A DNA stretch of 64,000 nt from a virus. Lineage: Duplodnaviria > Caudoviricetes. How positions within the stretch are numbered: position 1 is the stretch's first letter; each line of letters opens with the position of its first letter. Of this stretch, positions 284 to 47,309 are shown piece after piece. Position numbers and translations under genes: made by a program. The stretch lies in the IMG/VR virus record IMGVR_UViG_3300005259_000074, positions 1-64,000 of that record. The stretch is one strand, 5' to 3'. The notes beneath the pieces are model-generated. The model saw only the letters and a program-made list of their open reading frames with translations, was not told the origin of the DNA and did no database searches.

Positions 284-769
284 GTGAAGACACCATATCT
301 GCTCCAGAGGATCGGTTTCGACAGCAAGAACAACAAACTCGTGTACGACTACATGGGAAGCGCTGAGTTCGAGTTCGGCTCGATCCCAAAGATCTACCGC
401 GAGATGGCGAAGGACTCCAAGCAGTTCGTGATAAAGACGGTCGTCGGAGCTGACGGCAAGTCAATAGTCAGCGCTAACGGCTTTGGACTCTTCTACATCG
501 GGAGAGAGTCCGAGTACGAAGAGGTGATGAAGTTCATACCCGACCTCCTCGCTGGAAAGACCCGCTTGAAGGAGAGGTCAGAGCTCCGCTTCCAGTACGA
601 AGATCCCGTGGATTTCAGAGGAAGGAAGTACTGGAGAGAGGACCGTTACGGTTCCAACACCGGAGTGCTCGACATCGACAACGGGTACTTCCTCGTGTGG
701 CAGGCGAAAGAAGCCGTGTCGGTCTTCACCTACTTCAAAACAGTTCTCGTCGAGAAGTTTTCGAAGTGA
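284..769 (+). CDS. hypothetical phage protein with DYMGSAEFEFG motif
   Basis: GTG start at 284 after AAGGGA; ORF 251..769 trimmed. Confidence 0.65.
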   Translation: MKTPYLLQRIGFDSKNNKLVYDYMGSAEFEFGSIPKIYREMAKDSKQFVIKTVVGADGKSIVSANGFGLFYIGRESEYEEVMKFIPDLLAGKTRLKERSELRFQYEDPVDFRGRKYWREDRYGSNTGVLDIDNGYFLVWQAKEAVSVFTYFKTVLVEKFSK

Positions 770-1086
770 AAATTTCGGAAGTGGTCATGTACGCTGAAAA
801 CACAAGTTGCAATCTAGCGACATGCTTTCCTCACCTGAGAGGGAAGATGGCGAGAGTCCCAGGAAAACCCGAGGACGGCCTCTGCGAAGTGAAAGGGTAC
901 AACTACAGGAACATGATGTTCGAGTGCTCGAGACCCCTTTTGAGGTACGACGAGAAAGTGTTGATATCGGTGAAGAACATCATGGAGATGCTCGTCGATA
1001 AGATTGACACTCCTCAAGAGGAACTGACGTTTAGCGAGCGAGCCTTGCTAGAGAGTGCTGCCGCAAGGAAAATTGAGGAGATATGA
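766..1086 (+). CDS. hypothetical protein with C-terminal tag (KIEEI)
   Basis: GTGA overlap with upstream stop; 4 Cys; ends AAARKIEEI*. Confidence 0.65.
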   Translation: MKISEVVMYAENTSCNLATCFPHLRGKMARVPGKPEDGLCEVKGYNYRNMMFECSRPLLRYDEKVLISVKNIMEMLVDKIDTPQEELTFSERALLESAAARKIEEI

Positions 1087-1178
1087 AAAGATAGAAAGTG
1101 AGAACTTTGAAGTTCTAGTGCGCGATGACGGCAGATTCGTAATGAAATTGCGTCACTCAGGGATGGTCTTCGGGTGTA

Positions 1179-1370
1179 GTGAAAAGTGAATCTGAGATTG
1201 CACCCACTCATCAGGAAGGGTACCGACAACTGAAGGAAATGGTCAAGTCTGTCAAAAGAAAAGATGACTGCATCATCTGGTGCTATTGCTCACAATCTCA
1301 GCTCCAGAACACTTCACAATGTCGCTTCAGCGTGGTATTGCTATTCGACGGAGAACTGCGCAGAGAGTAG
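1179..1370 (+). CDS. small hypothetical protein
   Basis: 63-aa ORF filling the gap before cca; no recognisable motif. Confidence 0.3.
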   Translation: MKSESEIAPTHQEGYRQLKEMVKSVKRKDDCIIWCYCSQSQLQNTSQCRFSVVLLFDGELRRE

Positions 1371-1417
1371 AAGTGATGAATGCATTAGCTACGAAAGACA
1401 AACACTAAGGTAAAAGA

Positions 1418-2773
1418 ATGCTCACGTCTGCGAACAGGCTTCTGGAAGCGATAGAGAACCTCGGAGGGCAGGCCCTCATCGTCGGAGGCGCAGTCAGAGA
1501 CATCTCGATGGGAGTCGTCCCCCACGACATCGACATAGCGACGAACCTTCCGATAGACACTATTGCGAAAAACTTCAGGTCTCACGATGTCGGGCGGTCC
1601 AAGGACTTCGGGATCGTAGTCGTCGAGTGGGAGGACTTCACGTTCGAAGTCGCTCAGTTCCGCAGTGACGGCGTCTACTCCGATGGGAGGTCTCCTGAGT
1701 CTGTCACTGCCGCTCTCGACTTCAAGACCGACGCATCTCGTCGAGACTTCACCATAAACGCTATGGCCATGGACTCCCGGGGGAACATACTCGACTACTT
1801 CGGAGGACGAGAAGACATCTCCAAGAAGGTCATCAAGACCGTCGGTGACCCCAACAAGCGGTTCCAAGAAGACAAGCTGAGGATGCTCCGGGCGGCTCGC
1901 TTCGCAGCTAAGTTGGACTTCTCCATAGATCCAGCGACGCGGGATGCAATGCTGCTGAACTGCGAGGGAATAAAGCAGGTCTCCGGAGAGCGCATTAGAG
2001 ATGAATTGATGAAGATCGCCTCTTCCGGCGGTAGACAGCTGTCTAAGATGCTGAAAGAGCTCAGTGATGCTGGAATCATGCATATCATCCTCCCTGAGAT
2101 ATCAGCGATGGAAGGTCTCCCGCACAACCCAGCTTATCATCCCGAGGGAGACGTCCTCCAGCACTGCTTCGCTGCAGTGGAGACCAGCGACTCCACCGAC
2201 CCCATCGTCAACCTCGCGATACTGTTCCACGACATCGGGAAGGTCAAAACGTTCAAGATGGACGGCGACAACCCCACGTACAGATCGCACGCGTTCGTTG
2301 GCATCGACATGTTCGAGGACATCGCGCTCAGGCTGAAGCTGTCGCGAGAAGACGCGGACCGCATATCGTTCTGCATAGAGCACCACATGCTGTTCAACTA
2401 CGAGTTCCCCAACATGAGAGACAGCACCGTCGCGAAGCTCCTGAGAGATCAGAACTTCAACGACCTACTGCTCGTCGCAGAAGCGGACGACAGGGCTCGC
2501 ATGCACGTGTACGACGCTGAGGTGTGGGGGAAGATCCACGAGAAGATCGACAAAGTCAGAGCTAAGTTGGAGCTGACGGACTATGACAAGCTCAGGAAGT
2601 TGGTCAATGGACACAGGGTCATGCAGATACTGGGGATCAAACCCGGGAAGATGGTCGGAAAGGTCATAGACGTCTCGCTCAACTGGGCTGTCGACGCTGG
2701 GATATCGGACCCCGATGCAGTATACGCTTACATAGCGGAGATGAACCTCTCAGAACTGGAGAATGACACATGA
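1418..2773 (+). CDS. cca: CCA tRNA nucleotidyltransferase with HD domain
   Basis: GGAVRD, DIDIAT, RRDFTINAMA, EDKLRMLRAARF; HD region HPEGDV...LFHDIGK. Confidence 0.95.
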   Translation: MLTSANRLLEAIENLGGQALIVGGAVRDISMGVVPHDIDIATNLPIDTIAKNFRSHDVGRSKDFGIVVVEWEDFTFEVAQFRSDGVYSDGRSPESVTAALDFKTDASRRDFTINAMAMDSRGNILDYFGGREDISKKVIKTVGDPNKRFQEDKLRMLRAARFAAKLDFSIDPATRDAMLLNCEGIKQVSGERIRDELMKIASSGGRQLSKMLKELSDAGIMHIILPEISAMEGLPHNPAYHPEGDVLQHCFAAVETSDSTDPIVNLAILFHDIGKVKTFKMDGDNPTYRSHAFVGIDMFEDIALRLKLSREDADRISFCIEHHMLFNYEFPNMRDSTVAKLLRDQNFNDLLLVAEADDRARMHVYDAEVWGKIHEKIDKVRAKLELTDYDKLRKLVNGHRVMQILGIKPGKMVGKVIDVSLNWAVDAGISDPDAVYAYIAEMNLSELENDT

Positions 2774-3057
2774 CACGCGTCTGGGGAGACTTAGAAGCTT
2801 TCGACTTGGAGAGCATAAAGTGCATTGGTATACAACGAAAGGATAACTTGCGCACAGCAATCATCACGACGTTAATCATACTGACGTTATCGATAGTCAG
2901 CGCTCTGTGCAGCGGATTTGGTGTAGTGATCTACACTGGTATGAACATCATAGTGTTCGTTGGTCTGTTCAATATAATGAGGTACGACAACAAGTGGATA
3001 GAACGTCTTGAAGAAATTGAAGCCGCCCGCCTAGATAGGAAGTTAGAAGATATATGA
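2770..3057 (+). CDS. two-TM membrane protein with C-terminal tag (KLEDI)
   Basis: ATGA-coupled; two hydrophobic segments; ends AARLDRKLEDI*. Confidence 0.7.
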   Translation: MTRVWGDLEAFDLESIKCIGIQRKDNLRTAIITTLIILTLSIVSALCSGFGVVIYTGMNIIVFVGLFNIMRYDNKWIERLEEIEAARLDRKLEDI

Positions 3058-3521
3058 AGTTCACCCTGTGGAAAGACAAAGACAAGACCGATGAGACAGT
3101 AGCTTGGGCTGAAGAGTGCCTCGCTAGAGTCGAGAAGCTTGTCGTGACAGTCGGGCCTGGGAACCCCACAATCATTACAAAGCACTTTATGCTGAAAGAG
3201 GCCTCCATTCAGATCGTCTATTACTATGTAAACCTGAAGATAGATTTCCAGTGTTTCATAGCTCAGATACTTGCAATGTTTGTCGGGAGTGTATTACTCT
3301 CTCTGTACGTAGCAGCAGAATCGCAGTCGTACGGTGCGTTATTCTACTTAGGGGAGATCACATCGATTGTGTTCTTCGCAGTGATGATCGTCTTCGTTAA
3401 GATGGCGGAAGACACAATGCAGCTTGAGACTTCCAACATCAGCGAATATCATCAAACGATGGTGACTATCGAAGAGTCTCTTCGAGATGATATCGCTGAA
3501 GCGATGCTAGAGTGGATCTAG
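3054..3521 (+). CDS. two-TM membrane protein with tag-like end (MLEWI)
   Basis: ATGA-coupled; hydrophobic segments; shares CTAG stop with the convergent gene. Confidence 0.7.
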   Translation: MKFTLWKDKDKTDETVAWAEECLARVEKLVVTVGPGNPTIITKHFMLKEASIQIVYYYVNLKIDFQCFIAQILAMFVGSVLLSLYVAAESQSYGALFYLGEITSIVFFAVMIVFVKMAEDTMQLETSNISEYHQTMVTIEESLRDDIAEAMLEWI

Positions 3522-4255
3522 CTGCCCTTCGGCAACTTTTTTAAGTCAGGTTGTGCCGGCTTCAAGTATAAGTCGTTGAGGCCTTCTCTGCTCTCGAATG
3601 CTATCGTCGCTATCTGGTCGATGTCGTGGAAATTGAACGGATTTATCTTGTTCTTAGAGTCAGCCGCGATAGGCTCTTCTTCAGCCATCCACAGTGACAT
3701 GAGATTGCCTTCGCCGACGCCAGTTTTTCCACCTTCGACTGCCCTGAGCATCTGGTTAGCGAAGCGCTTCCTCCAGTACTCCGGTTCCTCAGCTTGGAAC
3801 TGCTCAGATGTGAACGGCTTTCCGTTCTTCTTCTCCAGCTCTTCACACAGGTGCTCCATGTAGTCAACTTCTTTGAGCAGCCCTTTGATGCGTATCTCCT
3901 GCTCTTCCATCTGGCGAGACAACTCATACAACTCGAGGTCCGCGTCTTCTGCAGTTGGGTCAGCTGAACCCTTCGCATCTTCTAGTTTTTTGTTGAGCTT
4001 CGTGATCTTTCTCGACTTCTTCTCCTGGTCGATTATCAAGCGCCGCGCTTCTTGCATGGTCACGTAGCTGTTGTGAGCCAGGTGGCGGAACTTTGTGATG
4101 GGGGTGTACTCGTCACAACCAATGAACTTCTCGATCATGAAGTTAGAGCGAGTCTGAGCGAACTCTCCAGCTCTGTCTTTCATCTTATCGAGCTGCTGTT
4201 CGACAGTAGTGAAACGGGAGTCAGTCACAGCTACTTGCGCGTTGTCGTTCATCAC
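3518..4255 (-). CDS. conserved-looking coiled-coil hypothetical phage protein
   Basis: 245-aa ORF; EEPEYWRKRF..GNL motif recalled from tail-region hypotheticals. Confidence 0.7.
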   Translation of the reverse strand: MMNDNAQVAVTDSRFTTVEQQLDKMKDRAGEFAQTRSNFMIEKFIGCDEYTPITKFRHLAHNSYVTMQEARRLIIDQEKKSRKITKLNKKLEDAKGSADPTAEDADLELYELSRQMEEQEIRIKGLLKEVDYMEHLCEELEKKNGKPFTSEQFQAEEPEYWRKRFANQMLRAVEGGKTGVGEGNLMSLWMAEEEPIAADSKNKINPFNFHDIDQIATIAFESREGLNDLYLKPAQPDLKKLPKGS

Positions 4256-4674
4256 TCAGCCCTCACAGAGAACTTCTTCTTCTGTCCGTCCACCTCGAGC
4301 ACGAACTTGACGACGTAGTCATCGACGTTATCAAGAGCAGCCCCACTCTTCATGATGAATTGCACCAGGGCGTTCTTAGCTCCGAGACTCAATTCGTTGC
4401 GTGTTTCGACTGCCATTGTGGTCTTGTCGACAGACGGAGCTGGGTGAACACCGTGGACCACCTCGATCTTAGGCTGGACCTTCTCTATGGGTGTCTGATT
4501 AGAGACTGTAGTCGCCTTCGGCTTCGGAGTCATGCTCTTCTCGTAGCCTTCGGTCAGTTTGGTGAGAGACTTGTCGAGGAGAGCTCCCCACGATTCGCTA
4601 GACCCGCTGTTGTTCATGACTGACGACGGGTGTTGTGATGCTGGTGAGCTCATCGCTCCTTTTGGTGCTGACAT
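4252..4674 (-). CDS. hypothetical low-complexity protein
   Basis: ATG 4674 after AAAGGA; GTGA-coupled to next gene. Confidence 0.6.
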   Translation of the reverse strand: MSAPKGAMSSPASQHPSSVMNNSGSSESWGALLDKSLTKLTEGYEKSMTPKPKATTVSNQTPIEKVQPKIEVVHGVHPAPSVDKTTMAVETRNELSLGAKNALVQFIMKSGAALDNVDDYVVKFVLEVDGQKKKFSVRAE

Positions 4675-4721
4675 GACTTGTGTTCCTTTCACATATCACT
4701 ATAGACTCAGTGGACCGGGGC

Positions 4722-5642
4722 TCAGATCGCCCTGTAAGTACCTTCGGAGACCGCTCCGGATACTAACGCGTCTTTCACTGATGTGTGGATCCCGCCGACT
4801 GTGAAGAACTTCTTCCACATCTCGTCGAAATCGCTCTTCGCTACTTCTGCTCTGCGGATGTTCTCGTCTATCAGAGAAGCGTCATCCATAGACCAACCAT
4901 TCTCGAGACGGACTTTATTCCATCTACAATACTGCTTGAAGGGCATTTGCGACGCTATGAATACACTTCCAGCTTCGGAAGTGCCCTCTAACATGTTGTC
5001 GATGATGCCACTCGCCCAGTCTAGCTTAGTCCACCGCTTGGCTGAAGACATGTCGACGTCGGGTCTGATTATCTTACCCTGCCCCAGCGACATCATCTCG
5101 ATGTCATGGATGTCCGCACCTAACTGGTCGATTGATGCCGCTGCGAGTACCATCGATGGGTCGTTTGCGAATAGCCCTCCGTCCACATATGCTCCCATGG
5201 GATCGAAATAAGTTGGAGCAGACACTGAAGCAAGCACTGCCATCCACAAAGGATAGTCTCCATCTTGAATGGAGGAGAAGATCTTTGGACGTCTCTTGGA
5301 GTAGTCATAAGATGTGATGAACACTGGTTTCTTAAGATCTTTCATCTTGACGTTGTAGTTCTTCTTACAGAATTCTACGAGGACTTTATTCGGCCATCTA
5401 GAACCAAATGGTGTCAGCGTGTGGTACGAAAGGAAGTTGCGATTAAAGACTTCTGGTAGCCAGCCTCTCATGATGGGAAGGAGATCTGCTGGATCTTTAC
5501 CCATGAATATCCAAGCAACAATAGCGGTACCGATAGATGTCGCTCCTGCGCAATCGAACTCACTTAGCGGATCTTTGTCTCTCGTCAGCGCAGCAGTTAT
5601 GACTCCGAAACACCCTCCACCGTCAACAGCCCATTCTTTCAT
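4722..5642 (-). CDS. patatin-like phospholipase
   Basis: DGGGCFG oxyanion loop, nucleophile elbow ATSIG (G>A variant of GxSxG), SVSAPTYF, DGGLFANDP. Confidence 0.9.
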   Translation of the reverse strand: MKEWAVDGGGCFGVITAALTRDKDPLSEFDCAGATSIGTAIVAWIFMGKDPADLLPIMRGWLPEVFNRNFLSYHTLTPFGSRWPNKVLVEFCKKNYNVKMKDLKKPVFITSYDYSKRRPKIFSSIQDGDYPLWMAVLASVSAPTYFDPMGAYVDGGLFANDPSMVLAAASIDQLGADIHDIEMMSLGQGKIIRPDVDMSSAKRWTKLDWASGIIDNMLEGTSEAGSVFIASQMPFKQYCRWNKVRLENGWSMDDASLIDENIRRAEVAKSDFDEMWKKFFTVGGIHTSVKDALVSGAVSEGTYRAI

Positions 5643-5682
5643 CGTCAGCGCCTACATTCTTTCATCTTTCGCTCGATCATAT

Positions 5683-5928
5683 CTAATGATCGTTGCATTT
5701 CATTTTTCTTTTATTCAGTTTGTCTAACAACATGTCACCTTCTTTAGATGTCATGTTGCCATCCGACACACGCTCGACAATGTAGCACTCGGCAGCTTCA
5801 TATCCCAATGAGTCAGCTAATTGTTCTACTATCATAGTGTCAGATTCAAGCTGGTCGTGCACAAGTGGTGTGCACGCCGCTATACAACATATCAGAAACA
5901 CCATTGATAACAATAACAAGGAACGCAT
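5683..5928 (-). CDS. small lipoprotein
   Basis: N-terminal signal with lipobox IAAC. Confidence 0.65.
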   Translation of the reverse strand: MRSLLLLSMVFLICCIAACTPLVHDQLESDTMIVEQLADSLGYEAAECYIVERVSDGNMTSKEGDMLLDKLNKRKMKCNDH

Positions 5929-5937
5929 GTGGTGTTC

Positions 5938-6702
5938 TTAAGTTAAAATAATCCTATTAGCGAAATCAGCCGTTCCAACGAACTCCGGGCGCTGACTGTA
6001 CCCGTACCTAGAGAGGCGAGGAACAGTCGCATCAATGAGAGGACCGTAAGCTGGAGAACCGAGTTCTCCCCATATTTCCAGCGCATAGTGTGTGAAAGCA
6101 CCGCAACAGTGACCACCAATGCAAGCATCTGCGCTAGTCTGGTTAGACCTACAAGCTGCCAACTGAGTCACTCCAGGTCGCCTATCTGGATCGATAGGAG
6201 TGCTAGTTATCCTCATGATAGCTGAACTCAAGTCGAAATTCGGAATGAACTTAGCTTTCTCATCTTTGAACATCAGCTCGCGGAGGGAGTCCGCCGCATG
6301 GCAGCAGTCGGCCCAGTCGACGAATTGAGCGCCTGGTTTCAACAGACTGAGCAGTTTGTCCATCTGGTCGTCTACTATCATGTGATCAGGATCCCAATCG
6401 AAATCGTCGGGACACCAGACTTCAGCTAGTCCGTCGGTCTCGGTGGAGTCAGACACTTGTGCCCCGTGGTGGCTGTGAGCGTGGAACACGATGTCACCTG
6501 GGTTAGCGTCTCTGATGTACTTCTCGAGGAGAGCCAACCAGTTCTTAGTGCTCATGTTTGGTCCGAGGAGTTCGACTATCTCGTCGATGTTCCCAAGTGA
6601 CACTAACTTCTTCTTGATGTCTTCCATATCATTCAGACACCCCTTAAGTGCATGAGATTTTCCGACGTAATTAGTCCCACAGAGCAACGCTATCCTCTTC
6701 AC
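5938..6702 (-). CDS. metacaspase-like cysteine peptidase (C14)
   Basis: LKGCLND, HSHHG (catalytic His), DCCH (catalytic Cys), LAACRSNQTSAD, GAFT. Confidence 0.9.
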   Translation of the reverse strand: MKRIALLCGTNYVGKSHALKGCLNDMEDIKKKLVSLGNIDEIVELLGPNMSTKNWLALLEKYIRDANPGDIVFHAHSHHGAQVSDSTETDGLAEVWCPDDFDWDPDHMIVDDQMDKLLSLLKPGAQFVDWADCCHAADSLRELMFKDEKAKFIPNFDLSSAIMRITSTPIDPDRRPGVTQLAACRSNQTSADACIGGHCCGAFTHYALEIWGELGSPAYGPLIDATVPRLSRYGYSQRPEFVGTADFANRIILT

Positions 6703-6753
6703 GTCATTCTCCTAGTTAATCGTGTGTGCCGCCCTCAAAGGGCGGCTAAAAGT

Positions 6754-7194
6754 TCACTTGATCTTGATGCCCTTCTCAGCGAGGATTTTCTCTGCGACAG
6801 GGAGCTTAGACGCATTGAACCCTCTCGAGAACACTGCATTGAGAGCTTTGACTTCGAGATCTCTGATATCAGCGATCGCTTTTACTTTAGTGAGGCTCTT
6901 AGTCTCCGACACAGTAGTCGCAGTCGCTGTTGAACTTGCGAGAGCGGCCGAAGCGCTGTTAGCGAGAGCTGCGATTGCCGTAGCTTCACTGGCTTGTGAA
7001 GCATCGATGACGCCAGCTGTCTCGAGAGCCGATGTAATAGACGCCACGTTGTTAGAAGTCGTCATTGCCTGCACTGTGCTCGCCGCAGTGCTGATTGCTG
7101 CTGTGACGTCTGTCGAGTTGCACCCGACGATGACACTGGCTGTCAGCGCGACAGCGAAGACGATCGCGATAGATAGGTTCTTGAAGCTTTTCAT
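6754..7194 (-). CDS. Ala/Thr-rich lipoprotein
   Basis: Signal peptide with lipobox IVGC; helical Ala-rich body. Confidence 0.7.
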   Translation of the reverse strand: MKSFKNLSIAIVFAVALTASVIVGCNSTDVTAAISTAASTVQAMTTSNNVASITSALETAGVIDASQASEATAIAALANSASAALASSTATATTVSETKSLTKVKAIADIRDLEVKALNAVFSRGFNASKLPVAEKILAEKGIKIK

Positions 7195-7222
7195 GATACG
7201 TTTCCTCTTGTTGTGTTGAGAT

Positions 7223-7897
7223 TTACTTGTCTGACGTCAATTTCTTCTGGAGCACTCGGAACATCTTTTCATCCGCTATCATGCGGTTATCGATGGGATC
7301 TTCACCAGCAGTTAAAGCGTCTAGACTCTTGTCAGTCATGTTCGCCAACTCATTAAATCTTGTATTGACCTCTTTGTCAGATGCGGCGATTTCTCTTATC
7401 TTCGTCAGAGTCTCAAACGCTCTGGCTTGTGCAGGTAAATCCATCGCGTCTATTTGCTTACTCAGAGTCTTTTCGAAGTACTTCGCTACTGATTCAGTGT
7501 CTACTACTTCCAGGCCGTCGATCTCTATTGTGATCGATCCATCAGCATGAGTCTCAATCTTCGTCTTTTTCAACCTCGTCTTAGCTGCATAATCCCAGTT
7601 CAACTCTCCGACAGAAGAACTACCATAAGGAAGCGTCGACTTTGAGATCCTTAAGGACATCATGTCACCGTCTCCAAGTTTATGATTGAATATCTTAGAG
7701 TAAATGGTACCGAAGTCTAACCTAGGTGATATTGCTCCATCAGAACCGACTGAAGTGTTGAACGTGAAACCACTGCCTTGAGCACTCGCTGTAGTGGATT
7801 TTCCACCCAAATCTTTCCATAACTCATCAAAAGCACAGCCTGCCGCTATCGTCAATACCAGACAAAAAACGCACAAGATAATTAATTTCTTCATCAT
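7223..7897 (-). CDS. lipoprotein, unknown function
   Basis: ATG 7897 after AGGAG; MMKKLIIL...AAGC lipobox. Confidence 0.7.
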   Translation of the reverse strand: MMKKLIILCVFCLVLTIAAGCAFDELWKDLGGKSTTASAQGSGFTFNTSVGSDGAISPRLDFGTIYSKIFNHKLGDGDMMSLRISKSTLPYGSSSVGELNWDYAAKTRLKKTKIETHADGSITIEIDGLEVVDTESVAKYFEKTLSKQIDAMDLPAQARAFETLTKIREIAASDKEVNTRFNELANMTDKSLDALTAGEDPIDNRMIADEKMFRVLQKKLTSDK

Positions 7898-7936
7898 TTT
7901 CTCCTGATTATCAAGAATTATCGTCACTGTTTGATT

Positions 7937-7944
7937 TATTTATA
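7937..7944 (-). promoter_or_regulatory. T4-type late promoter TATAAATA
   Basis: Exact gp55 consensus about 40 nt upstream of the lipoprotein/metacaspase/patatin operon. Confidence 0.75.
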
Positions 7945-7993
7945 AGTTAAATCATTTACAACCGGAAATGTAATTTGTAGAACTTTGATATGT

Positions 7994-8374
7994 TCATTGT
8001 TCGAGCTCCGTAATTTTTGCTTTGACGCTGACAAGATCTATTGAGGCCTGGGAGAGTGCTGTTGCTGTGACTACGTCGGAAAGGTCAATGACTTGCGCGT
8101 CCGCCCAATCTGCTTTGAACTCTGAGGAAGACTCTAGAAGCGCGTCAAGCTGGCTCTCAATTCCAAGAGCTCTCATTGCGCGGCGGATTTGGAGTTTCGA
8201 GACATATTGGGGTGTCAGAACTGCGCCAGCTGGAAGCTCTTGACCTATATCTATTCCCGGTGTCGAGTCAGCTATTGTGTAGATGCTCGCGGTCGGATAG
8301 AGTGCAAAAAGCCTTTGCGACATTTCATCAGCATAGGTCGCTTCGATCATTCCATTGAAAATGACGAGTTGCAT
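7994..8374 (-). CDS. tail fibre-associated (assembly chaperone-like) protein
   Basis: Follows a fibre gene; VSKLQIRRAM...WADAQVI motif typical of fibre-adjacent proteins. Confidence 0.55.
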   Translation of the reverse strand: MQLVIFNGMIEATYADEMSQRLFALYPTASIYTIADSTPGIDIGQELPAGAVLTPQYVSKLQIRRAMRALGIESQLDALLESSSEFKADWADAQVIDLSDVVTATALSQASIDLVSVKAKITELEQ

Positions 8375-8384
8375 GAAGTCCTCC

Positions 8385-9908
8385 TTAGTTTCTGATATAG
8401 GCGTTATAATTGCCGTTGGTGTTGACTGCCGGGGTCGCGTTGGTGGTGCAGGATGTAAACGTAACTCCTACGGCGTAAACAAAGCTACCCTGATAGCATG
8501 ATATGCCTGTCGTAGCGGTGTTTATAGTTGCGCTAGCCGCGTAAACCAAACTGACATTTTGGCAAACGATTCCCGTGGTGCAATTTGTAATGGCTGCGGA
8601 GTTGATGAGCGCACTGGAGAAGTAGTTTACGTTTACGCCATAGGTGCAAGCAGTAATCGTTAGAGAACCCGCATTCGAAACAAACTCAGCCCTGCTTCCT
8701 ACCGCTACACCGCTTCCGCAATTCGACATGGTGCAGTACGGAATTTGCAATTCCGAACCCATTTGAACAGACGCGCCATACGCGGTCGTTCCAGAGAAGA
8801 CTGCGTATTGCAATCGAACTTGCGAATTGTATGAAATGAACAATCCGCCATTAGATTGGTTGTTCGAGAAGCACAAAGCTGTAGCTTGCGTAGTCGCGCC
8901 GTAAACGGAAGACATGTAGTATACAGTGAAGGAAGTCCCGAAAAAGCCGCATGTTATAATAGACTTGATGAAAGACCCGTTAGCGATGTAAATACCGGCA
9001 CTTGATGTCGCTCCACCAGAGTTCGTGAAAGCGCAGTTTTGAATAGAATTGAGACACCCTGTAAGTAGGGTCCAGCCTTGCACGCCTGTAGTGCTAGATG
9101 TTATGTCTATGATGGTTTTTAATACCACCGCGGTAGATGTTGCTGTCACAGCTCCGGCCGGAACGCCTGTAGGATTCGTGCAAGATACGCTGATACGCTT
9201 GTTTCCGGTATCTACATTTGTGATGGGCCAGCACCCCTCTGCGTATTTAGGGTTCGTTCCTCCACTACAGCCCGATATGTTGATGTAGTCCCCTACGGAC
9301 ACGTTTGCCACATCATTCATATTAAACGTAATCGTATAGGCCCCGGATGAACCGCTAGAACTTTGAACAGAGGAAATGCTCTTTACATAAGTGTGTGTTC
9401 CTGCTATATTGATGAAAGTTCCATGGCGGTGTAGCAGATTTGTGGAGCCTGAAGAGGAATACGTGCCATCAGCTAGATAGATGTTGACTGTTGCGGTGAT
9501 ATCGTAATCCTGAAGATACACGATTGCTTTCCCGACAGTCGCCCAGGGATTACCTGATGATCCATCTCCTGTAGTATCCGATCCAGTGGTCGCGACATAA
9601 AAGTTAGTAGTCGCCGATATGACTCCACTGCTAGCTACAGTAGCTCTGCCTTTCGAATCAAATGTGACCGCGGCTCTAGCATAACTTCCTGCCGCAACCC
9701 CTGAAGATGCTAGTGTTAAATTGCCCGGATAATCTAATGTAGCATCGCCATAGACTGTGATGGCTGTAGCTACACCGGACATGTTACCCATGAAAATCTT
9801 ATTCGCTGCAAGTTGAAGCGTTGAAGCAATCGGTGTGATGGCAGAGTTGCCTGCTATCAAAAATATTAGACTCGTCACTAGAAGCGCTGTAGCTAGTGCT
9901 CTTTTCAT
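8385..9908 (-). CDS. tail fibre/tailspike-like protein with beta-helix (pectin lyase-like) C-terminus
   Basis: GVAAGSYARAAVTFDSKGRAT fibre motif, FYVATTGSDTTGDGSSGNPWATV, Ser/Thr/Asn-rich beta-helix repeats. Confidence 0.75.
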   Translation of the reverse strand: MKRALATALLVTSLIFLIAGNSAITPIASTLQLAANKIFMGNMSGVATAITVYGDATLDYPGNLTLASSGVAAGSYARAAVTFDSKGRATVASSGVISATTNFYVATTGSDTTGDGSSGNPWATVGKAIVYLQDYDITATVNIYLADGTYSSSGSTNLLHRHGTFINIAGTHTYVKSISSVQSSSGSSGAYTITFNMNDVANVSVGDYINISGCSGGTNPKYAEGCWPITNVDTGNKRISVSCTNPTGVPAGAVTATSTAVVLKTIIDITSSTTGVQGWTLLTGCLNSIQNCAFTNSGGATSSAGIYIANGSFIKSIITCGFFGTSFTVYYMSSVYGATTQATALCFSNNQSNGGLFISYNSQVRLQYAVFSGTTAYGASVQMGSELQIPYCTMSNCGSGVAVGSRAEFVSNAGSLTITACTYGVNVNYFSSALINSAAITNCTTGIVCQNVSLVYAASATINTATTGISCYQGSFVYAVGVTFTSCTTNATPAVNTNGNYNAYIRN

Positions 9909-10324
9909 GCTAAGATCTCCTTTATTCTGGTTTCACTGAGTATTCCTATGGCTACAAGATAGGCCATAGCGTCTTCCATCTCTTCTCCATCGAGGACACA
10001 CTCTTGATAGAGTTGCATGCCTTCTCGCCATTCCGTTATCGCTGTATCAGAAGATGCTTTGAGAGCTTGAAGTTCAGTAGTCAAGAATCGATTATAGAAC
10101 TCCTTTGGGCTACAAACGCGGTGTCGCATGACAATTGGAGTGATCGAAAGATCAATCGCGTTGAGTACCGATTGTGCTTCCTCGCGCTGCGCTTCTGTAG
10201 CAGAAGGAAGATAGTCCACCACCCACGTGGTCTTATCGTTCCAGTCGCCTAGGCTGATGCCCTGCGCTGGAACCACCTTTTGCACTTTAGCAAAGACGTC
10301 GTCAGTAGTTAAAACAGCCATCAT
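9905..10324 (-). CDS. tail fibre-associated (assembly chaperone-like) protein
   Basis: Directly after the 989-aa fibre; ends LVAIGILSETRIKEILA, typical of fibre-adjacent chaperones. Confidence 0.55.
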   Translation of the reverse strand: MMAVLTTDDVFAKVQKVVPAQGISLGDWNDKTTWVVDYLPSATEAQREEAQSVLNAIDLSITPIVMRHRVCSPKEFYNRFLTTELQALKASSDTAITEWREGMQLYQECVLDGEEMEDAMAYLVAIGILSETRIKEILA

Positions 10325-13294: not shown

Positions 13295-13307
13295 TCAGGT
13301 GTTTCCT

Positions 13308-32721: not shown

Positions 32722-32915
32722 ATCATGTCTAAGTCCTCTTCACTCTGTAAGTCATACCACGCTTTTACTGAATTGCACCTGTAAGTCATGATGTCGCACC
32801 ACTTGCACTCGCGTTCTCTCTTCCCAAGTTCGAAGTACTTGCACGCAGTCTGCCCACCATCAGGAAGACAGAGCAAGGGTTCATCCAGTAGTTTCAGAGC
32901 TTTTAATTCTTTCAC
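32718..32915 (-). CDS. CRT-family protein
   Basis: GTGA-coupled start 32915; CKYF; ends EDLDMI*. Confidence 0.7.
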   Translation of the reverse strand: MKELKALKLLDEPLLCLPDGGQTACKYFELGKRERECKWCDIMTYRCNSVKAWYDLQSEEDLDMI

Positions 32916-40524: not shown

Positions 40525-40794
40525 ATGGTTACAAAGAGTGAACTAGCGAAGTCCAACAGGACGAGTGGCTGTCGAGCGTGGTCGAGTGATCCGAAAGAAC
40601 GGAAAGGACTGTGCCATGCTTACACGAAGTGCTACTGCAAGTGGTTCAAACCTCTAGACAGAAGAGTTGAAGACTACAGGACAGCGGCATGCCGCTTTCA
40701 CAACGGCGGTTACTGCACGTGCTGGGCTGCCCTCCGAGAAGCTCGAGAAGAATTCATGAAGCAGAGAGTCGCACAAGCGCTGGAAGAACTATGA
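40525..40794 (+). CDS. CRT-family protein
   Basis: CKWF..C..YCTCWAA..AQALEEL*. Confidence 0.75.
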   Translation: MVTKSELAKSNRTSGCRAWSSDPKERKGLCHAYTKCYCKWFKPLDRRVEDYRTAACRFHNGGYCTCWAALREAREEFMKQRVAQALEEL

Positions 40795-41018
40795 AGACGA
40801 TACACAGTCACTGCTACATGATAATGACACCCAGAGGCCATCAGCACACGTGCTTGTCAAAGGTCGTGTCTTTCTGCAAGTGGTCTGTCGAGGCGACTGA
40901 CGGGAGATGCGAGCACGCATTCTTCCATTCCGACGACAGGACAACAGAGTGCATGCGCTCGGAAGCCAGAGAAGAGACCAGCGAGTACGAGGCGGCGTTG
41001 AGGATGGAAGAGATATGA
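40791..41018 (+). CDS. CRT-family protein
   Basis: ATGA-coupled MKTIHSHC; ends ALRMEEI*. Confidence 0.8.
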   Translation: MKTIHSHCYMIMTPRGHQHTCLSKVVSFCKWSVEATDGRCEHAFFHSDDRTTECMRSEAREETSEYEAALRMEEI

Positions 41019-41287
41019 AGACAATAAACCACTGCATTACGATGGAGGCGCATTTCATCAAGAAGTTCGCAGACGAACGCCAACCCGGCGACCACATGTG
41101 CGTGTCCATCGCGCAAGATTACTGCAGATTCTTCCAACCGGGACACGAGAGGTGGACTAACGGTGGGATGTCTTTCATGTGCGCGCACTGTAAGACCGAT
41201 GAACACAAGAATTACAACTGCACGTGCAAAGAAGCGATCGCCGACGCAGATGAAGCGCTCTTAGCGGAGAAGTTAGAGGAACTATGA
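41015..41287 (+). CDS. CRT-family protein
   Basis: ATGA-coupled MKTINHC; CRFF; CTCKEAIADA..EKLEEL*. Confidence 0.8.
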   Translation: MKTINHCITMEAHFIKKFADERQPGDHMCVSIAQDYCRFFQPGHERWTNGGMSFMCAHCKTDEHKNYNCTCKEAIADADEALLAEKLEEL

Positions 41288-41559
41288 AGGAAAATTGCTG
41301 CATCACCATAACTAACAGCATCACGCTCTTCAGAAAGAATCTCACTCCGGGAACTCACTACTGCGCGTCTAACATCTCGGAGTTCTGCAAATTTTACAAA
41401 AAGACAGTAGAGACGCTGCGTAGTTCATGCGGTGAGATTAAGACTTTCAAGTGCGCTTGGAATATGTCTCGCGATAGTGCTAGTAGTGTCTGCACTTGCA
41501 AGGAAGCGATAGATGAAGCCGACGAGGACGCCATCGCAGAGAAACTGGAAGATTTGTAG
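41284..41559 (+). CDS. CRT-family protein
   Basis: MKENCC; CKFY; CTCKEAIDEA..EKLEDL*. Confidence 0.8.
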   Translation: MKENCCITITNSITLFRKNLTPGTHYCASNISEFCKFYKKTVETLRSSCGEIKTFKCAWNMSRDSASSVCTCKEAIDEADEDAIAEKLEDL

Positions 41560-41624: not shown

Positions 41625-42347
41625 ATGGGCAGAGTCAAGCAGTTGGACAAGTTAGTCGACAAGATAAGAGGTGTCGCTGGTGTCAGAGCGCACATCAATG
41701 AAGTGCTCTGGAAGCGGATGAAGAAGCTCGGAGAGGTGTTCTTCGAGTCCTTCTTCTATGAGGGCCAGAAGAAACCGGACGCAAAGCGTTTGTCAGACCT
41801 CTTCTACTACACCGGTGGATGGCCGCACGAGAACACCCCTCCGAAAGCGAAGGACCTCGCCCACGACATCTCCATAGCGTACAACTTCTTCAGGATAGCT
41901 GGGTACGACGACTTCGAGAAGTACCTAGCGGAGAATGGCCTGGGCATAGTGGTCCTCGACCCGGAGAAGGCGAAAGTCGTGTTCGACAAGCAGAAGTTCG
42001 CCGCCCAGGTCGCCCTATTCAACGAAGTGGAACCAGAACACGCGATGGCTCCTCGAGCTGAACCACAGGCGGCCTTCTTGGAGATCGTAGAGCGGTGCAT
42101 GGATGTGCAGGGAGAGATCTGCGCACAAGCCGACAAGATCAAACTCCGAGCTGCGGTGGAAGCGAGTGCCGAGCACAAGATCCAGAAGAAGAACTTCATC
42201 ATCGCGGTCAACAATGAGTCTAAGAGAGGTCTGGACTTCGCTGACAAGTTCAAAGCCGGGAAGTTCCACCAGAAGACACTGGACTCCTCTTCGGAGCTGA
42301 CTGAGATCGAGACCGCCATGAAGAAAGAAGACTCGATCAGAGCATGA
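41625..42347 (+). CDS. hypothetical protein; C-terminus weakly DsbA/GapR-like DNA-binding
   Basis: Strong ORF; similarity of ADKIK..A..EHKIQKKNF to T4 DsbA is from memory only. Confidence 0.6.
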   Translation: MGRVKQLDKLVDKIRGVAGVRAHINEVLWKRMKKLGEVFFESFFYEGQKKPDAKRLSDLFYYTGGWPHENTPPKAKDLAHDISIAYNFFRIAGYDDFEKYLAENGLGIVVLDPEKAKVVFDKQKFAAQVALFNEVEPEHAMAPRAEPQAAFLEIVERCMDVQGEICAQADKIKLRAAVEASAEHKIQKKNFIIAVNNESKRGLDFADKFKAGKFHQKTLDSSSELTEIETAMKKEDSIRA

Positions 42348-42619
42348 AGGTAGAAGACGGCAGTTTGGTGTTCAGATTCCGCGGGATGATGTACGAGTTC
42401 CCCATCGGAATAAGCGCAGTCTTCCTGATCATGAGCGTGATAGGTGTCGTGATGGTAGTCCAAGAGCCTCTGATCGAAGACAGCGGCCCTGAGATACGGA
42501 TGATGGGTGCAATATTCTTAATAGTGTGCCTATCATACTTGAAGCGCATGCGCAAGTTCGCCAAGGAGCGCGATGTGTCAGACGAAGAAATACTAATACG
42601 AAAGTTGGAGGAGTTGTGA
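42344..42619 (+). CDS. two-TM membrane protein with C-terminal tag (KLEEL)
   Basis: ATGA-coupled; two TMs. Confidence 0.7.
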   Translation: MKVEDGSLVFRFRGMMYEFPIGISAVFLIMSVIGVVMVVQEPLIEDSGPEIRMMGAIFLIVCLSYLKRMRKFAKERDVSDEEILIRKLEEL

Positions 42620-42909
42620 TCATCTTGCTCGAAGACTCGGACATGAAATCTTCCAACGCGAGGGCTGCTGCGGAAGACATCGGCGTCAAACACAAAGGTT
42701 ACCACCAGAGGTTCGGCACTAGCGATTACGACATCGGAGGTGTGCACAAAGTTTTCATGGCGAGGTACATCATCCACGTCCCACACCAGGGAGAAGCAAA
42801 AGTCATCAAGTCTCGCGATAGCCAGATAGGGATCAACGGGATCATACCGGAAGACATCGCCGAGAAGTTCAAGAAGATGATAGCGTTAGATGCTATGGAG
42901 AGACTATGA
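42616..42909 (+). CDS. hypothetical protein with C-terminal tag (AMERL)
   Basis: GTGA-coupled start 42616. Confidence 0.65.
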   Translation: MIILLEDSDMKSSNARAAAEDIGVKHKGYHQRFGTSDYDIGGVHKVFMARYIIHVPHQGEAKVIKSRDSQIGINGIIPEDIAEKFKKMIALDAMERL

Positions 42910-43229
42910 ACGCGCTGAATCAGTTCATCGAGGTGATAGCTGAGGCATACGCTTCTTACATCTACACGAGGAAGGCAAAGAAGATACCGCTTAGGCTCAG
43001 CGTGCTGATGGTCCTCATAGCGTTCTTCAACTACGTCTTCAACGAACTCCTCTTAGGTTGGAACTTACACAACGTGCTCTTCTCCGGAAAGCACGATGCA
43101 GGGACTCTACTGGGTCTCGCTGTCTCAGCATGCACAGTGGGGTTCATCTTCCTTGTGTCTTACAGGATACAGGTGAAATTCAACCAGATGAAAGACGATG
43201 ACATAGCGACAGCTATAGAGGACATATGA
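42906..43229 (+). CDS. two-TM membrane protein with C-terminal tag (AIEDI)
   Basis: ATGA-coupled; two TMs. Confidence 0.7.
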   Translation: MNALNQFIEVIAEAYASYIYTRKAKKIPLRLSVLMVLIAFFNYVFNELLLGWNLHNVLFSGKHDAGTLLGLAVSACTVGFIFLVSYRIQVKFNQMKDDDIATAIEDI

Positions 43230-43555
43230 GAGAATCCGCAGAGGTCTTAGCAAAAGACGTAGCTGACTACGTGACCACCGACAAGTGGGCCAACGAAAAT
43301 CACGAGATGAGGAGTATGACACTCGTGTGGTACTTATCGCTGTTCTTGTTATTCCCATTCATGTTCGGAAACAGCTGTGGAAGAGTTGTCGAAGATATGT
43401 GCAATTGCGACATGATGCGCGCGCCTTTCTCGTGCGTCTTAGTCGTGTCGACAGGCTTTCTGACGTTCTACTCCTTCGCTTCGCTGAAGATCGCGAAATA
43501 CATCGTCAGAGAGCATGAGTACTCCGAGATAGACAAGAAGTTGGAGGAACTGTGA
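43226..43555 (+). CDS. two-TM membrane protein with C-terminal tag (KLEEL)
   Basis: ATGA-coupled; two TMs with a Cys-containing loop. Confidence 0.7.
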   Translation: MRESAEVLAKDVADYVTTDKWANENHEMRSMTLVWYLSLFLLFPFMFGNSCGRVVEDMCNCDMMRAPFSCVLVVSTGFLTFYSFASLKIAKYIVREHEYSEIDKKLEEL

Positions 43556-43860
43556 GACTCGAGAAATACGACGTGTTCAAGTGCTCTCACGATTGCGCGA
43601 TAACGCTGGTCGAAGACGACAGATTTTCCGTGTCGTTCACTAGAGGGTTATACGTCGTCCTGATTGCAATACACGGACCACCGCCGCACAACCTTGTTGA
43701 ACTCTACGGAGTGTCTGGCTTAGACCCACTCATAATCCGTAACATCTCCAAGAGAGTCTCCGTTGAGACCCTCAAGAGGAGCATGGACTTCGGGTACATG
43801 TCTTACGACGAGAAAGATTCTCTGGAACTCAAAACCAACCACAAGTTGGAGGATCTGTGA
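43552..43860 (+). CDS. hypothetical protein with C-terminal tag (KLEDL)
   Basis: GTGA-coupled. Confidence 0.7.
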   Translation: MRLEKYDVFKCSHDCAITLVEDDRFSVSFTRGLYVVLIAIHGPPPHNLVELYGVSGLDPLIIRNISKRVSVETLKRSMDFGYMSYDEKDSLELKTNHKLEDL

Positions 43861-45712: not shown

Positions 45713-45955
45713 ATGAGTACTCTAGAAGCAAAGAATTACTGCGCCTACTCGGACGTCTTTGGAATGCCCGTCAAGAGGTTCAAGTGCGAGAAACCAAAGG
45801 AGTCTACCAAGTGCAAGTACTACGAAAGTGACGAGACACCAACGACTCAGATGAACGAGTGCATGCACGAGTCTTTCGGGGTCTGTGCAAGGAGTGCAGC
45901 TAGGAAGGAGGCGTTAGCCGAAGTTGAACTGATGGAGAGACTGGAGAACATATGA
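45713..45955 (+). CDS. CRT-family protein
   Basis: NYC..FKC..CKYY..C..C..AARKEA..RLENI*. Confidence 0.8.
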   Translation: MSTLEAKNYCAYSDVFGMPVKRFKCEKPKESTKCKYYESDETPTTQMNECMHESFGVCARSAARKEALAEVELMERLENI

Positions 45956-46227
45956 ACAAGTACCTATCCAGAGCTATAGACAGCATCGAGCGGTTCGAAC
46001 TCTTCATGGTGATCGGAGGCGTACTGACGATCTTCATCAAATCAGCCGTCGATGCAGCCTTTGATCTCGTGCACGAACACACGGGGTTTGACATCATTCT
46101 GATGGTGTTGGGAGCCACAGGGGTCATCTGGAATATCATTCTGATCTACACGGTGTTCTCAAGAGCTCGCAAGTACAAGCGAGATAAGGAAGAGCGCTTG
46201 ATTCTGGAGAAGTTAGAAGATGTGTAA
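45952..46227 (+). CDS. two-TM membrane protein with C-terminal tag (KLEDV)
   Basis: ATGA-coupled; two TMs. Confidence 0.7.
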   Translation: MNKYLSRAIDSIERFELFMVIGGVLTIFIKSAVDAAFDLVHEHTGFDIILMVLGATGVIWNIILIYTVFSRARKYKRDKEERLILEKLEDV

Positions 46228-46480
46228 GGTCAACAGGTGCTGGATAAGGAATTTCGACGGTCTCTTCGACGACGTCTACACCTGCACTTGCTCACAAATT
46301 ATCATCAGCAGATCTCCTAACATATTCGACTACGACACGTGTCAACACTTCGTGCAAGTTCCGGACTACGCAGACGAGATGTGCAAGTACGAGGTATCGA
46401 GGCCAATCGTCGGCATACTCTGCGGATGTCCAGAAGCGCAGGACGACGCCGAAGCAAACAAGAAGTTGGAGGAACTGTGA
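46220..46480 (+). CDS. CRT-family protein
   Basis: CQHF..CKY..CGCPEAQDDAEANKKLEEL*. Confidence 0.8.
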   Translation: MCKVNRCWIRNFDGLFDDVYTCTCSQIIISRSPNIFDYDTCQHFVQVPDYADEMCKYEVSRPIVGILCGCPEAQDDAEANKKLEEL

Positions 46481-46725
46481 AGAGGAACTTGTGCGGAAAG
46501 TACGGTGATGTGTTCATCTGCGAAGCCGAAGATAGGACGTACGTTCCTGTACGTCCTTCATCACTATTTGAAGACAACCATTCTACGTCTCAAGAAGATT
46601 GCATGTACTACAAGAAGGGTACTCCACTCTACAACGAATGTTACAACTTAGTGAACGGAATAAAGTGCAATTCTAAGAGAGCTAGAAAAGACGCCAGCAT
46701 AGTAGCTATGATAGAAGCTCTATGA
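46477..46725 (+). CDS. CRT-family protein
   Basis: GTGA-coupled MKRNLC; CMYY; ends AMIEAL*. Confidence 0.8.
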   Translation: MKRNLCGKYGDVFICEAEDRTYVPVRPSSLFEDNHSTSQEDCMYYKKGTPLYNECYNLVNGIKCNSKRARKDASIVAMIEAL

Positions 46726-46763
46726 AGATGAACTTACACAACGAACAACTGGAGGAACTTTAG
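46722..46763 (+). CDS. 13-aa minigene MKMNLHNEQLEEL (CRT termini only)
   Basis: ATGA overlap upstream; TAG abuts the next ATG; contains GGAGG. Confidence 0.55.
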   Translation: MKMNLHNEQLEEL

Positions 46764-47309
46764 ATGGACCGGCCGTACCCCGAAGAAGGCTCATGCGGTT
46801 CTTTGAGAGACTGGTACGTCGCTAGGAGGAACATCATCTTGAACCGCCGGTGTGATGATCCCACTAATTCTTCTAACATACACCCTCTTGTGAAAGAACT
46901 GTGCGTCACGTTGAACTCCATCCCGGGCATTGTGACTGGCTGCATTAGCGGAAAAGAACTCGACCCATTCAGAGTGTGGTTCTACGCGTACAACCAGGCC
47001 CAACTGTTCGTCGTCGCTAGAGCTATCGACAGGCGCTACTGCGGAGCTGCTGCTTGGCGCATGTACGTTGATGCAGGGGACATGCAGGAGTTCGCTACAT
47101 CCTACTACATAGAGGGATTCTCAAAAGACAGAGGCATCTCGTATTCCGACAACGAGCGAGATGAAGTCAGGATTCCACACGTAGTGAAGAACATTAAGAA
47201 ACTCCTTGACGATCAACAATGCGCGATGTACTACGGTTACGACACCGATCAGACACAGATACCGACAGTGGAAGAGCTCGCATCGTATGAAAAACTCGAA
47301 GATTTGTGA
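46764..47309 (+). CDS. hypothetical protein with C-terminal tag (KLEDL)
   Basis: LCVTLNSIPGI..PFRVWF..ARAIDRRY motif; ends YEKLEDL*. Confidence 0.7.
   Translation: MDRPYPEEGSCGSLRDWYVARRNIILNRRCDDPTNSSNIHPLVKELCVTLNSIPGIVTGCISGKELDPFRVWFYAYNQAQLFVVARAIDRRYCGAAAWRMYVDAGDMQEFATSYYIEGFSKDRGISYSDNERDEVRIPHVVKNIKKLLDDQQCAMYYGYDTDQTQIPTVEELASYEKLEDL

Follow-up and report, generated by a model that had tools for sequence, protein, structure and literature searches.

The DNA examined here (the window) is a 64,000 nt stretch corresponding to bases 1-64,000 of IMG/VR record IMGVR_UViG_3300005259_000074, a sequence of 262,470 bp with a GC content of 48.7% that IMG/VR classifies as a virus of 97% completeness. 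About 130 of the about 450 genes of this phage (~30%; about a third of its proteins) end in the same short C-terminal peptide, typified by KLEEL or KLEDI, which we call the tail or tag. The genes of the record include those for a T4-type major head protein (no more than 37% identity to cyanophage homologs), NAMPT, RtcB, a helicase and tail-fibre-like proteins. The low identity of the head protein, coupled with the T4-type gene set, indicates that the DNA belongs to a distant, uncultured T4-like jumbo phage. The protein database places the proteins of this phage on a contig of 313,637 bp, of which ~51 kb falls outside the virus record, and the record is labelled 'provirus'.

Genes were called with a purpose-written program that uses codon usage and ribosome-binding sites (RBSs), which yielded 441 genes at 90% coding density, and the main counts were redone without gene calls by a six-frame scan of stop codons. 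A six-frame scan for tails added to the caller's set 12 genes that encode members of a Cys-rich protein family (the Cys family, described below). Four of these lie within the window and have full tails (40525-40794 and 63274-63612 on the plus strand; 31885-32202 and 59945-60139 on the minus strand).

Tails also occur throughout the window on non-Cys proteins, several of which are orphan open reading frames (ORFans). The first is a 79-aa non-Cys ORFan (847-1086, +) that ends in ESAAARKIEEI, scores 20.6 on a position-specific scoring matrix (PSSM) covering the last 11 residues, has no match in Pfam or PHROG and lies 331 nt from the next called gene. The original prediction, an earlier reading of this DNA that listed tailed genes, gave its start as 766, where the same frame has an alternative GTG. 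A 95-aa membrane protein (2770-3057, +; AARLDRKLEDI) overlaps the next gene at an ATGA and writes its tail in codons poor in Shine-Dalgarno (SD) sequence (tta gaa gat ata). The overlapping gene encodes a 155-aa protein with two transmembrane (TM) segments (3054-3521, +) whose tail, DDIAEAMLEWI, is degenerate (PSSM 8.3). A 43-aa open reading frame (ORF) ending in ELSIIRALDGI (17524-17655, +) is a weak gene call and a doubtful member. On the minus strand are a 99-aa non-Cys ORFan lacking any Pfam or PHROG match (18161-18460; KEKITKKIENI) and a 113-aa non-Cys ORFan (23490-23831; EHSITTKLEEL) that is closed by the SD-free codons cta gaa gaa ctg tag. Two further ORFans, of 368 aa (34658-35764, +; DHAADVKLEGV) and 187 aa (35764-36327, +; EDEIIRAMEDL), are adjacent, and the second closes a run of same-strand genes and carries the SD-free codons atg gaa gac ctg.

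Five tailed genes follow one another on the plus strand between 42344 and 43860. They encode a 91-aa two-TM protein (42344-42619; EEILIRKLEEL) with a predicted N-in/C-in topology and a 25-residue cytoplasmic end, a 97-aa soluble ORFan with the degenerate tail KMIALDAMERL (42616-42909; PSSM 4.1), two-TM proteins of 107 aa (42906-43229; DDDIATAIEDI) and 109 aa (43226-43555; YSEIDKKLEEL), and a 102-aa soluble non-Cys ORFan (43552-43860; ELKTNHKLEDL) with no Pfam or PHROG match. Another 91-aa two-TM protein (45952-46227, +; ERLILEKLEDV) precedes a 13-aa mini-ORF, MKMNLHNEQLEEL (46722-46763, +), in which a cassette-like start is fused straight to the tail. Directly after it comes a 181-aa ORFan (46764-47309, +; ELASYEKLEDL) that uses the SD-free codons ctc gaa gat ttg, with the next gene 104 nt away. 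Finally, a 149-aa protein (56290-56739, +; DEFTLQKLEEI) lies outside the range of the earlier list; its ortholog on the related contig L022 (see below) ends in KLEDI. Every end in that list exists, and genome-wide the phenomenon is larger than had been claimed. Most of the listed tails are solid, those at 3054-3521 (MLEWI) and 42616-42909 (AMERL) being the degenerate ones, and the entry given as 46722 is the mini-ORF, which ends in QLEEL.

Genes of the Cys family occupy arrays in the same window. A minus-strand array of tailed Cys-rich mini-proteins spans 31000-33587, and four Cys-family genes fill 40525-41559 (+), the last of which closes with the SD-free string aaa ctg gaa gat ttg tag. Between 43857 and 46725 (+) lie Cys-family genes starting at 43857, 44072, 44311, 45713, 46220 and 46477, among which untagged genes and the tagged two-TM gene (45952) are interspersed. 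Further arrays surround the helicase gene (57113-58768) and extend over 56736-63612 on both strands, with 59258-63237 on the minus strand. Most array genes begin within the stop codon of the preceding gene (ATGA or GTGA). Because a start inside such an overlap requires a second codon that begins with A, this arrangement may explain why the cassettes start with MK, MN, MT, MR, MS or MI. The mini-ORF at 46722-46763 likewise overlaps the preceding gene's stop codon (cTATGA), and its ctggaggaac serves as an SD, with GGAGGA 7 nt 5' of the ATG at 46764. This mini-ORF looks like a cassette that has lost its body and kept both ends.

The tail comprises 11 residues with the consensus [DE](-11)-A-x-[LI](-8)-x-x-K(-5)-[LIM]-E-[ED]-[IL](-1)-COOH, where -1 is the last residue. 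Its core, [LMI]E[ED][LIVMF], closes 74 of 441 genes, compared with 0.25 expected from the internal rate, and a looser version closes 132 of 441 (2.7 expected). With the PSSM, 118 of the 441 termini score 12 bits or more, as do only 6 of 73,480 positions inside proteins. In the six-frame scan, tails that pass this threshold stand before 130 of 22,074 stops, each of which closes an ORF of at least 69 aa. A chance origin of this enrichment is excluded, and the motif is strictly C-terminal.

The length of the motif was established with 31 non-Cys bearers that had been chosen on their last four residues alone. At positions not used in this selection, K is present at -5 in 22 of the 31 (p=2e-18), E or D at -11 in 22 (p=5e-13), and I, L or V at -8 in 20 (p=1e-7). 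Since these positions repeat the consensus of the Cys family, the motif is 11 residues long rather than four. The final residue is I, L, V or M in 131 of 132 tails and is never D. Position -3 is E or D in all 132, as the selection pattern demands, and in 103 of the 112 members of the Cys family when that family is defined by its bodies. A logo of the 132 tails has no aromatic position; it is acidic at -3 and mostly acidic at -2, with Glu at -2 in 50 of 132 (~40%). The hydrophobic residues at -8, -4 and -1 fall on one face of a helix (i, i+4, i+7), and the helical hydrophobic moment of the tails is 1.26 versus 0.93 at other C-termini. TGA is the stop codon of 117 of the 132 tagged genes.

Most bearers belong to a single group. 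The Cys family, defined by a hidden Markov model (HMM) of protein bodies from which the last 12 residues had been removed, comprises 112 proteins of 60-130 aa with about six conserved Cys residues. The other bearers number ~36; nine are membrane proteins, most of them with two TM segments, and the rest include soluble ORFans 40-400 aa long and the 13-aa mini-ORF. The tail-trimmed Cys-body model recruited the 112 proteins and none of the TM or other bearers. After trimming of their tails, the latter are singletons by BLAST and HMM comparison, save for a pair of 371- and 402-aa paralogs, the pair at 56290 and 56736, and a probable chance match (64971). The best pairwise BLAST match among 16 window proteins has an E-value of 0.16. 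Under lenient HMM scoring, a few short non-Cys bearers give marginal matches to the Cys body (E 8e-4 to 0.1 in a search of 36 sequences). No credible match was found for 19 bearers tested against Pfam and PHROG, and a six-frame search of 42344-43857 revealed no alternative-frame Cys remnants beneath the non-Cys genes there. Descent from a single paralogous family accounts for the 112 Cys proteins and fails for the ~36 others. The earlier description of the bearers as unrelated is therefore borne out insofar as their trimmed bodies have no detectable similarity to each other. This unrelatedness holds at the reach of sequence methods, and a deep structural kinship may still link the bearers. By contrast, the idea that the tail had been 'grafted' onto these proteins finds no example, as tail-less homologs, which would reveal an acquisition, are lacking for every bearer and all bearers are lineage-specific ORFans.

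It could be argued that these terminal codons exist to provide an RBS for the following gene. Within 15 nt of 95 of the 132 tails there is a downstream start on the same strand, and GGAGG or GAGGA is present in 37 of 75 overlapping tagged cases. Indeed, the original prediction had allowed that an embedded SD plus a stop-start overlap would fit some cases while proposing that selection acts on the protein, and both views are sustained. The motif is found genome-wide at 37 of 191 uncoupled ends (19%), compared with 0.6% expected (p=2e-43), and so is not restricted to places where it supplies an SD. A comparison within the body-defined Cys family, which makes the test non-circular, gives a median PSSM score of 15.8 bits for coupled ends (n=84) and 16.0 bits for uncoupled ends (n=28; p=0.85). 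By contrast, the last five codons of genes in this family contain SD-like 4-mers at 63% of coupled and 32% of uncoupled ends. Codon choice follows the same pattern: coupled ends have GAG and GAA at -3 in a ratio of 54:26, compared with 13:18 for uncoupled ends (p=0.018), and ATA encodes a final Ile in 44 of 49 coupled versus 11 of 18 uncoupled cases (p=0.012). Codons thus shift toward SD sequence on coupling, but the peptide does not change. The equal retention of the tail at uncoupled ends, together with a shift that involves only synonymous codons, indicates that the peptide is selected and that its synonymous codons accommodate an RBS where the next gene needs one. At ends coupled through ATGA or GTGA, this stretch is dual-coded for peptide and a GGAGG-type RBS.

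Several other features of the nucleotide sequence bear on this point. All six Leu codons are in use at -4, and the 132 tails are written with 127 different 15 nt strings; for example, KLEEL is encoded by eight strings in nine genes. Such diversity rules out a conserved DNA junction that serves as a recombination site. Moreover, 84 overlapping genes that lack the tail use other C-termini. The five codon strings that had been quoted for SD-free ends (at 41559, 47309, 36327, 59257 and 23490) are exact, but not all of them are non-Cys ends as had been stated, because those at 41559 and 59257 close Cys-family genes.

Relatives of the phage keep the tag. L022, a metagenomic phage contig of 14.7 kb (1-14670), is syntenic with 55.6-70 kb of the phage genome, its helicase being 93% and its tail-tube protein 100% identical. 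The tag is present on 34 of its 43 genes, including the orthologs of the 149-aa (56290) and 123-aa (56736) proteins, and tagged proteins of the two phages are 33-85% identical. From 55600 to 63300 of the window, the interleaved Cys mini-proteins maintain their order with L022 and have this same range of identities. The contrast with neighbours that are 93-100% identical indicates that the array genes evolve far faster than the genes around them. Ratios of nonsynonymous to synonymous substitution (dN/dS) for tail and body between phage and L022 were not used as evidence, as synonymous sites are saturated (dS 1-2). A HMMER search of 1.84 billion representative proteins with the 368-aa protein (34658-35764) returned one relative, 39% identical and from an ENA contig, which ends …ADHVVDVKIDRI (VKIDRI) where the phage copy ends …TDHAADVKLEGV.

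More distant relatives lack the tag. None of the 216 genes of G001, a complete 164 kb relative whose head protein is 56% identical, has a tail, and only one of the 72 genes common to the phage and G001 has even a loose one. This count, and the absence of the tag from every annotated enzyme, agree with the earlier statement that enzymes and structural genes are without it. Megablast and tblastn searches of the phage collection recovered no tag-bearing relative, and helicase-anchored scans of viral and metagenome contigs recovered only relatives with 33% identity. A scan of IMG/VR for the junction AAGTTGGAGGANATATGA produced 13 single matches, which is about chance level, and no arrays. No sequencing run was listed as containing this region. 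The tag thus appears to be confined to lineage-specific accessory genes of a rare clade and, as far as the junction scan tells, absent from the rest of IMG/VR.

Structural predictions offer some indication of how the tail is displayed. The two-TM proteins are predicted to be N-in/C-in by the positive-inside rule (K/R distribution), and the whole of their cytoplasmic C-terminal segment is 15-40 residues long and closes in the tag. Because these proteins have no soluble domain of their own on which a helix could pack, the tag must act exposed there. For the Cys family, an AlphaFold2 model of the protein encoded at 60925-61149 (-), built from a 31-sequence alignment, has a predicted local distance difference test score (pLDDT) of 88.7 and a predicted template-modelling score (pTM) of 0.74. 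The modelled fold consists of two beta-hairpins, a short helix and a 15-residue terminal helix (residues 60-74 of 75). No match to this model was found by Foldseek in the PDB or AlphaFold clusters at E<=1, and the Cys mini-protein may, on the strength of the model, represent a new small fold. The single-sequence AlphaFold2 model of the 181-aa protein (46764) is unusable (pLDDT 53.8). Structure-atlas look-ups with three non-Cys bearers gave weak leads only; residues 32-159 of the 46764 protein aligned with viral hypothetical proteins, short of the tail.

Taken together, these observations identify the tail as a lineage-specific, portable, strictly C-terminal amphipathic helix that is selected as a peptide on ~130 diverse accessory proteins. 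Its most likely role, which we put forward with moderate confidence as a candidate function, is to dock, as a helix, on a single shared partner that either the phage or its host encodes. The hydrophobic stripe at -8, -4 and -1, flanked by K, E, E and the free carboxylate, would dock in a groove of this partner. One common machine would thereby be linked to a library of variable heads, made up of the hypervariable Cys mini-proteins, the inner-membrane anchors and other ORFans. The tail has the look of a docking element because it is exposed on the two-TM proteins, carries an i/i+4/i+7 stripe and an acidic pair, and needs the very end of the chain. Classic docking elements include short helices with a face of this kind and acidic C-termini whose last residue is hydrophobic, as exemplified by the p53 helix bound to MDM2, the C-terminal tip of SSB, EEVD with TPR domains and the class III ligands of PDZ domains.

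A number of points weigh against a docking role. In the model of the Cys family, the tail is the end of the 15-residue helix that starts right after the last Cys pair, and it may be packed against its own domain instead of being free. The bearers are without exception lineage-specific ORFans, and the tag is on no conserved protein, which also fits inheritance of a common cassette. Between orthologs of the phage and L022, tails are no better conserved than bodies (55% versus 53% identity), and only residue classes are kept (L/M/I, E/D, I/L). No reader has been found, the Pfam models PDZ, PDZ_2 and TPR_8 having no match in the phage genome. Lastly, the phage is uncultured and known from sequence alone.

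One candidate reader was considered more closely. Outside the window, 156261-162575 of the record holds an Amidoligase_2 gene, a metallopeptidase-VWA gene and a divergently transcribed gene for a MoxR-type AAA_5 ATPase. The last two form a pair at 158.9-162.6 kb with tagged genes on both sides. The DUF2201 metallopeptidase-VWA protein has intact, invariant HExxH and metal-ion-dependent adhesion site (MIDAS) motifs and a Gln/Gly/Pro-rich linker of 70 residues. Sigma70-like promoter sites are located between the divergent genes, and the MoxR gene is early-promoter-proximal. A promoter scan found no TATAAATA directly 5' of a tagged gene, a result that is uninformative because the genome has only 11 such sites. 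A complex prediction for the metallopeptidase-VWA protein (with Mg and Zn) and a tagged Cys mini-protein gave a score of 0.17 (mark 0.32) without controls, and speaks neither for nor against binding. As a dedicated reader of the tag this pair has lost weight, since MoxR/VWA-peptidase pairs, for which a role in virion assembly has been proposed, are common in T4-like jumbo phages (PMC7824862), and contigs that carry 44-46% identical homologs of the pair have no such tag. On other contigs (L029:1536-4171, L030:4741-7147 and L028:11205-11993), genes for DUF2201 metallopeptidase-VWA and AAA_5 proteins are followed by genes for small proteins with DUF4116 repeats, whose C-termini read …PC[ED][ED]AKI[IL]AKIxxL (for example …KILAKIRGL in L029 and L030) or …YQALERL; their loose likeness to E-A-x-I-x-x-K-I-x-x-L is unproven and may reflect homology or coincidence.

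A more elaborate form of the docking proposal, which we regard as a tentative extension and clearly less probable, is that the phage possesses an adaptor library whose members share the tag as a constant handle. More than 100 hypervariable mini-binders on a Cys scaffold, ~35 unrelated proteins and a set of inner-membrane anchors would then connect to one effector or hub, such as a protease, an AAA+ machine or a host complex. If so, the phage could redirect one machine to many different targets. To our knowledge, this logic is described for the F-box/PRANC and SOCS-box families of eukaryotic viruses and not for phages. The ankyrin/PRANC proteins of poxviruses resemble the phage set in being a large, fast-evolving repertoire of paralogs that combine variable binding domains with a constant C-terminal element, by which those viruses enlist a single host machine. 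However, the PRANC element is a domain of ~40 residues read by Skp1/Cullin, whereas the tag has 11 residues and is present also on unrelated bodies and membrane proteins, so that the analogy is one of logic only.

Three other explanations each seem unlikely, and to a similar degree. The tails might bind each other, forming coiled-coil-like bundles and mixed complexes in which, for instance, soluble mini-proteins are tethered to two-TM proteins. The d-a-d spacing of hydrophobic residues (-8, -4, -1), the charged K/E flanks, the elevated hydrophobic moment noted above and operons that interleave genes for tagged membrane and tagged soluble proteins are all in accord with this idea. Yet the tail spans only some three turns of helix and offers three core residues, with an acidic residue at the preceding 'a' position (-11), and a helix this short cannot sustain a stable stand-alone coiled coil.

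Alternatively, the tail could set protein stability, acting as a timed degron or as an acidic cap that shields small proteins from host proteases directed at C-termini. Such a function, to which we assign little probability, would suit a motif that is strictly C-terminal, is limited to small accessory ORFans and is absent from enzymes and virion proteins. The MoxR-type AAA+ ATPase and the VWA protein with intact HExxH and MIDAS, encoded among tagged genes, could be counted in its favour. Known bacterial C-terminal degrons (the ssrA-type LAA, the MuA type and the non-polar tails recognized by FtsH and Tsp) are instead non-polar or basic, and acidic residues at -2 and -3 block them. An ssrA-like non-polar degron was rejected for the same feature, as the tag is acidic at -3 and mostly so at -2. 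The MoxR/VWA pair is in any case common in T4-like jumbo phages (PMC7824862), and homologous pairs elsewhere are not surrounded by the tag.

The third explanation, which we likewise consider improbable, holds that the tail is the inherited end of a cassette whose bodies diverged or were replaced, with the helix stabilizing each fold as an intramolecular cap and no common reader. It draws on the occurrence of all bearers as lineage-specific ORFans in or near arrays, the resemblance of the mini-ORF at 46722 to a body-less cassette, the confident modelled helix that is continuous with the Cys domain, and the weak Cys-body matches of a few non-Cys bearers. It is difficult to reconcile with two-TM proteins that have no soluble body to cap, with proteins of 368-402 aa that cannot be derived from a 75-aa cassette, and with the lack of alternative-frame Cys remnants at 42344-43857. 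Also, a single consensus on unrelated folds is not expected of a purely structural role. Least probable by far is that the tail is a mere by-product of an SD and an ATGA/GTGA overlap for the next gene, an explanation we reject despite the proximity of downstream starts and the SD-shifted codons of coupled ends, since uncoupled ends keep the tail equally with SD-like words half as common, 84 overlapping genes manage without it, the conserved -5, -8 and -11 positions lie outside any SD, and 127 distinct nucleotide versions exist.

The docking proposal can be compared with known terminal signals. The C-terminal tails of T4 gp43, gp55 and gp33 are of the hydrophobic/aromatic LDFL type and bind the sliding clamp. 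Like the tag, they are short C-terminal peptides common to unrelated proteins of a T4-type phage, and they dock on one hub. They differ in occurring on three replication and transcription proteins, whereas the tag, an acidic amphipathic helix that lacks aromatic residues, is carried by ~130 accessory ORFans. The original prediction had compared the tag to these clamp-binding tails, but membership in this class does not hold up, given that the tag has no aromatic core and that the phage's own family-B DNA polymerase (864 aa; 213163-215757) is untagged and ends in KEEVSDINSL. The Pfam model gp45-slide_C has no match in the phage at E<=0.01, although a divergent clamp may exist. The capsid-targeting sequence of T4 IPI-III is another portable terminal tag that sends unrelated proteins to one destination. 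It sits at the N-terminus, where the head protease removes it at L/I-x-E, in contrast to the C-terminal tag with Glu at -2 in ~40% of cases; it was rejected as a parallel because it lies at the wrong end and because Glu is at -2 in only 50 of 132 tails.

The tip of SSB (DDDIPF), the EEVD ligands of TPR domains and the PDZ class III ligands share with the tag acidic residues, a terminal hydrophobic residue and a free carboxylate, and in each of these systems one reader serves many clients. The tag is distinct from them in being a longer, 11-residue helix with a K and two more hydrophobic positions, and in ending with I or L rather than D or F. Its last three residues do fit the PDZ class III pattern [DE]-x-hydrophobic-COOH; a PDZ class III reader within the phage was discarded for want of a PDZ or PDZ_2 match in its genome. 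The tag was also rejected as an EEVD/TPR ligand, because its last residue is I, L or V and never D and because TPR_8 has no match in the phage. The E-block, the C-terminal translocation signal of Dot/Icm type IV effectors, is similar in marking many unrelated proteins per genome (hundreds) with a Glu-rich C-terminal signal and a hydrophobic residue near the end. The E-block, however, is loose, non-helical and read by a secretion coupling complex, whereas the tag has a far tighter consensus and no secretion system is evident in the phage.

In cells and viruses, portable terminal tags address many unrelated proteins to one machine; sorting signals, degrons and hub-docking tips are examples. Among phages, the precedents that we know of are limited to a few proteins and consist of the capsid-targeting leader of T4 and its clamp-binding tails. 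New in the system described here are its scale (~30% of genes), a helical consensus that is tight over 11 residues, the occurrence of the tag on unrelated ORFans and membrane anchors, and its demonstrable dual coding. It provides a clean natural case in which a peptide motif and an RBS occupy the same 15 nt, and in which codon choice shows the active constraint for each gene end. The tagged set makes up a 'dark' accessory proteome without homologs. If a reader exists, its discovery would give ~130 ORFans one common pathway and could reveal a new strategy of host takeover or anti-defence.

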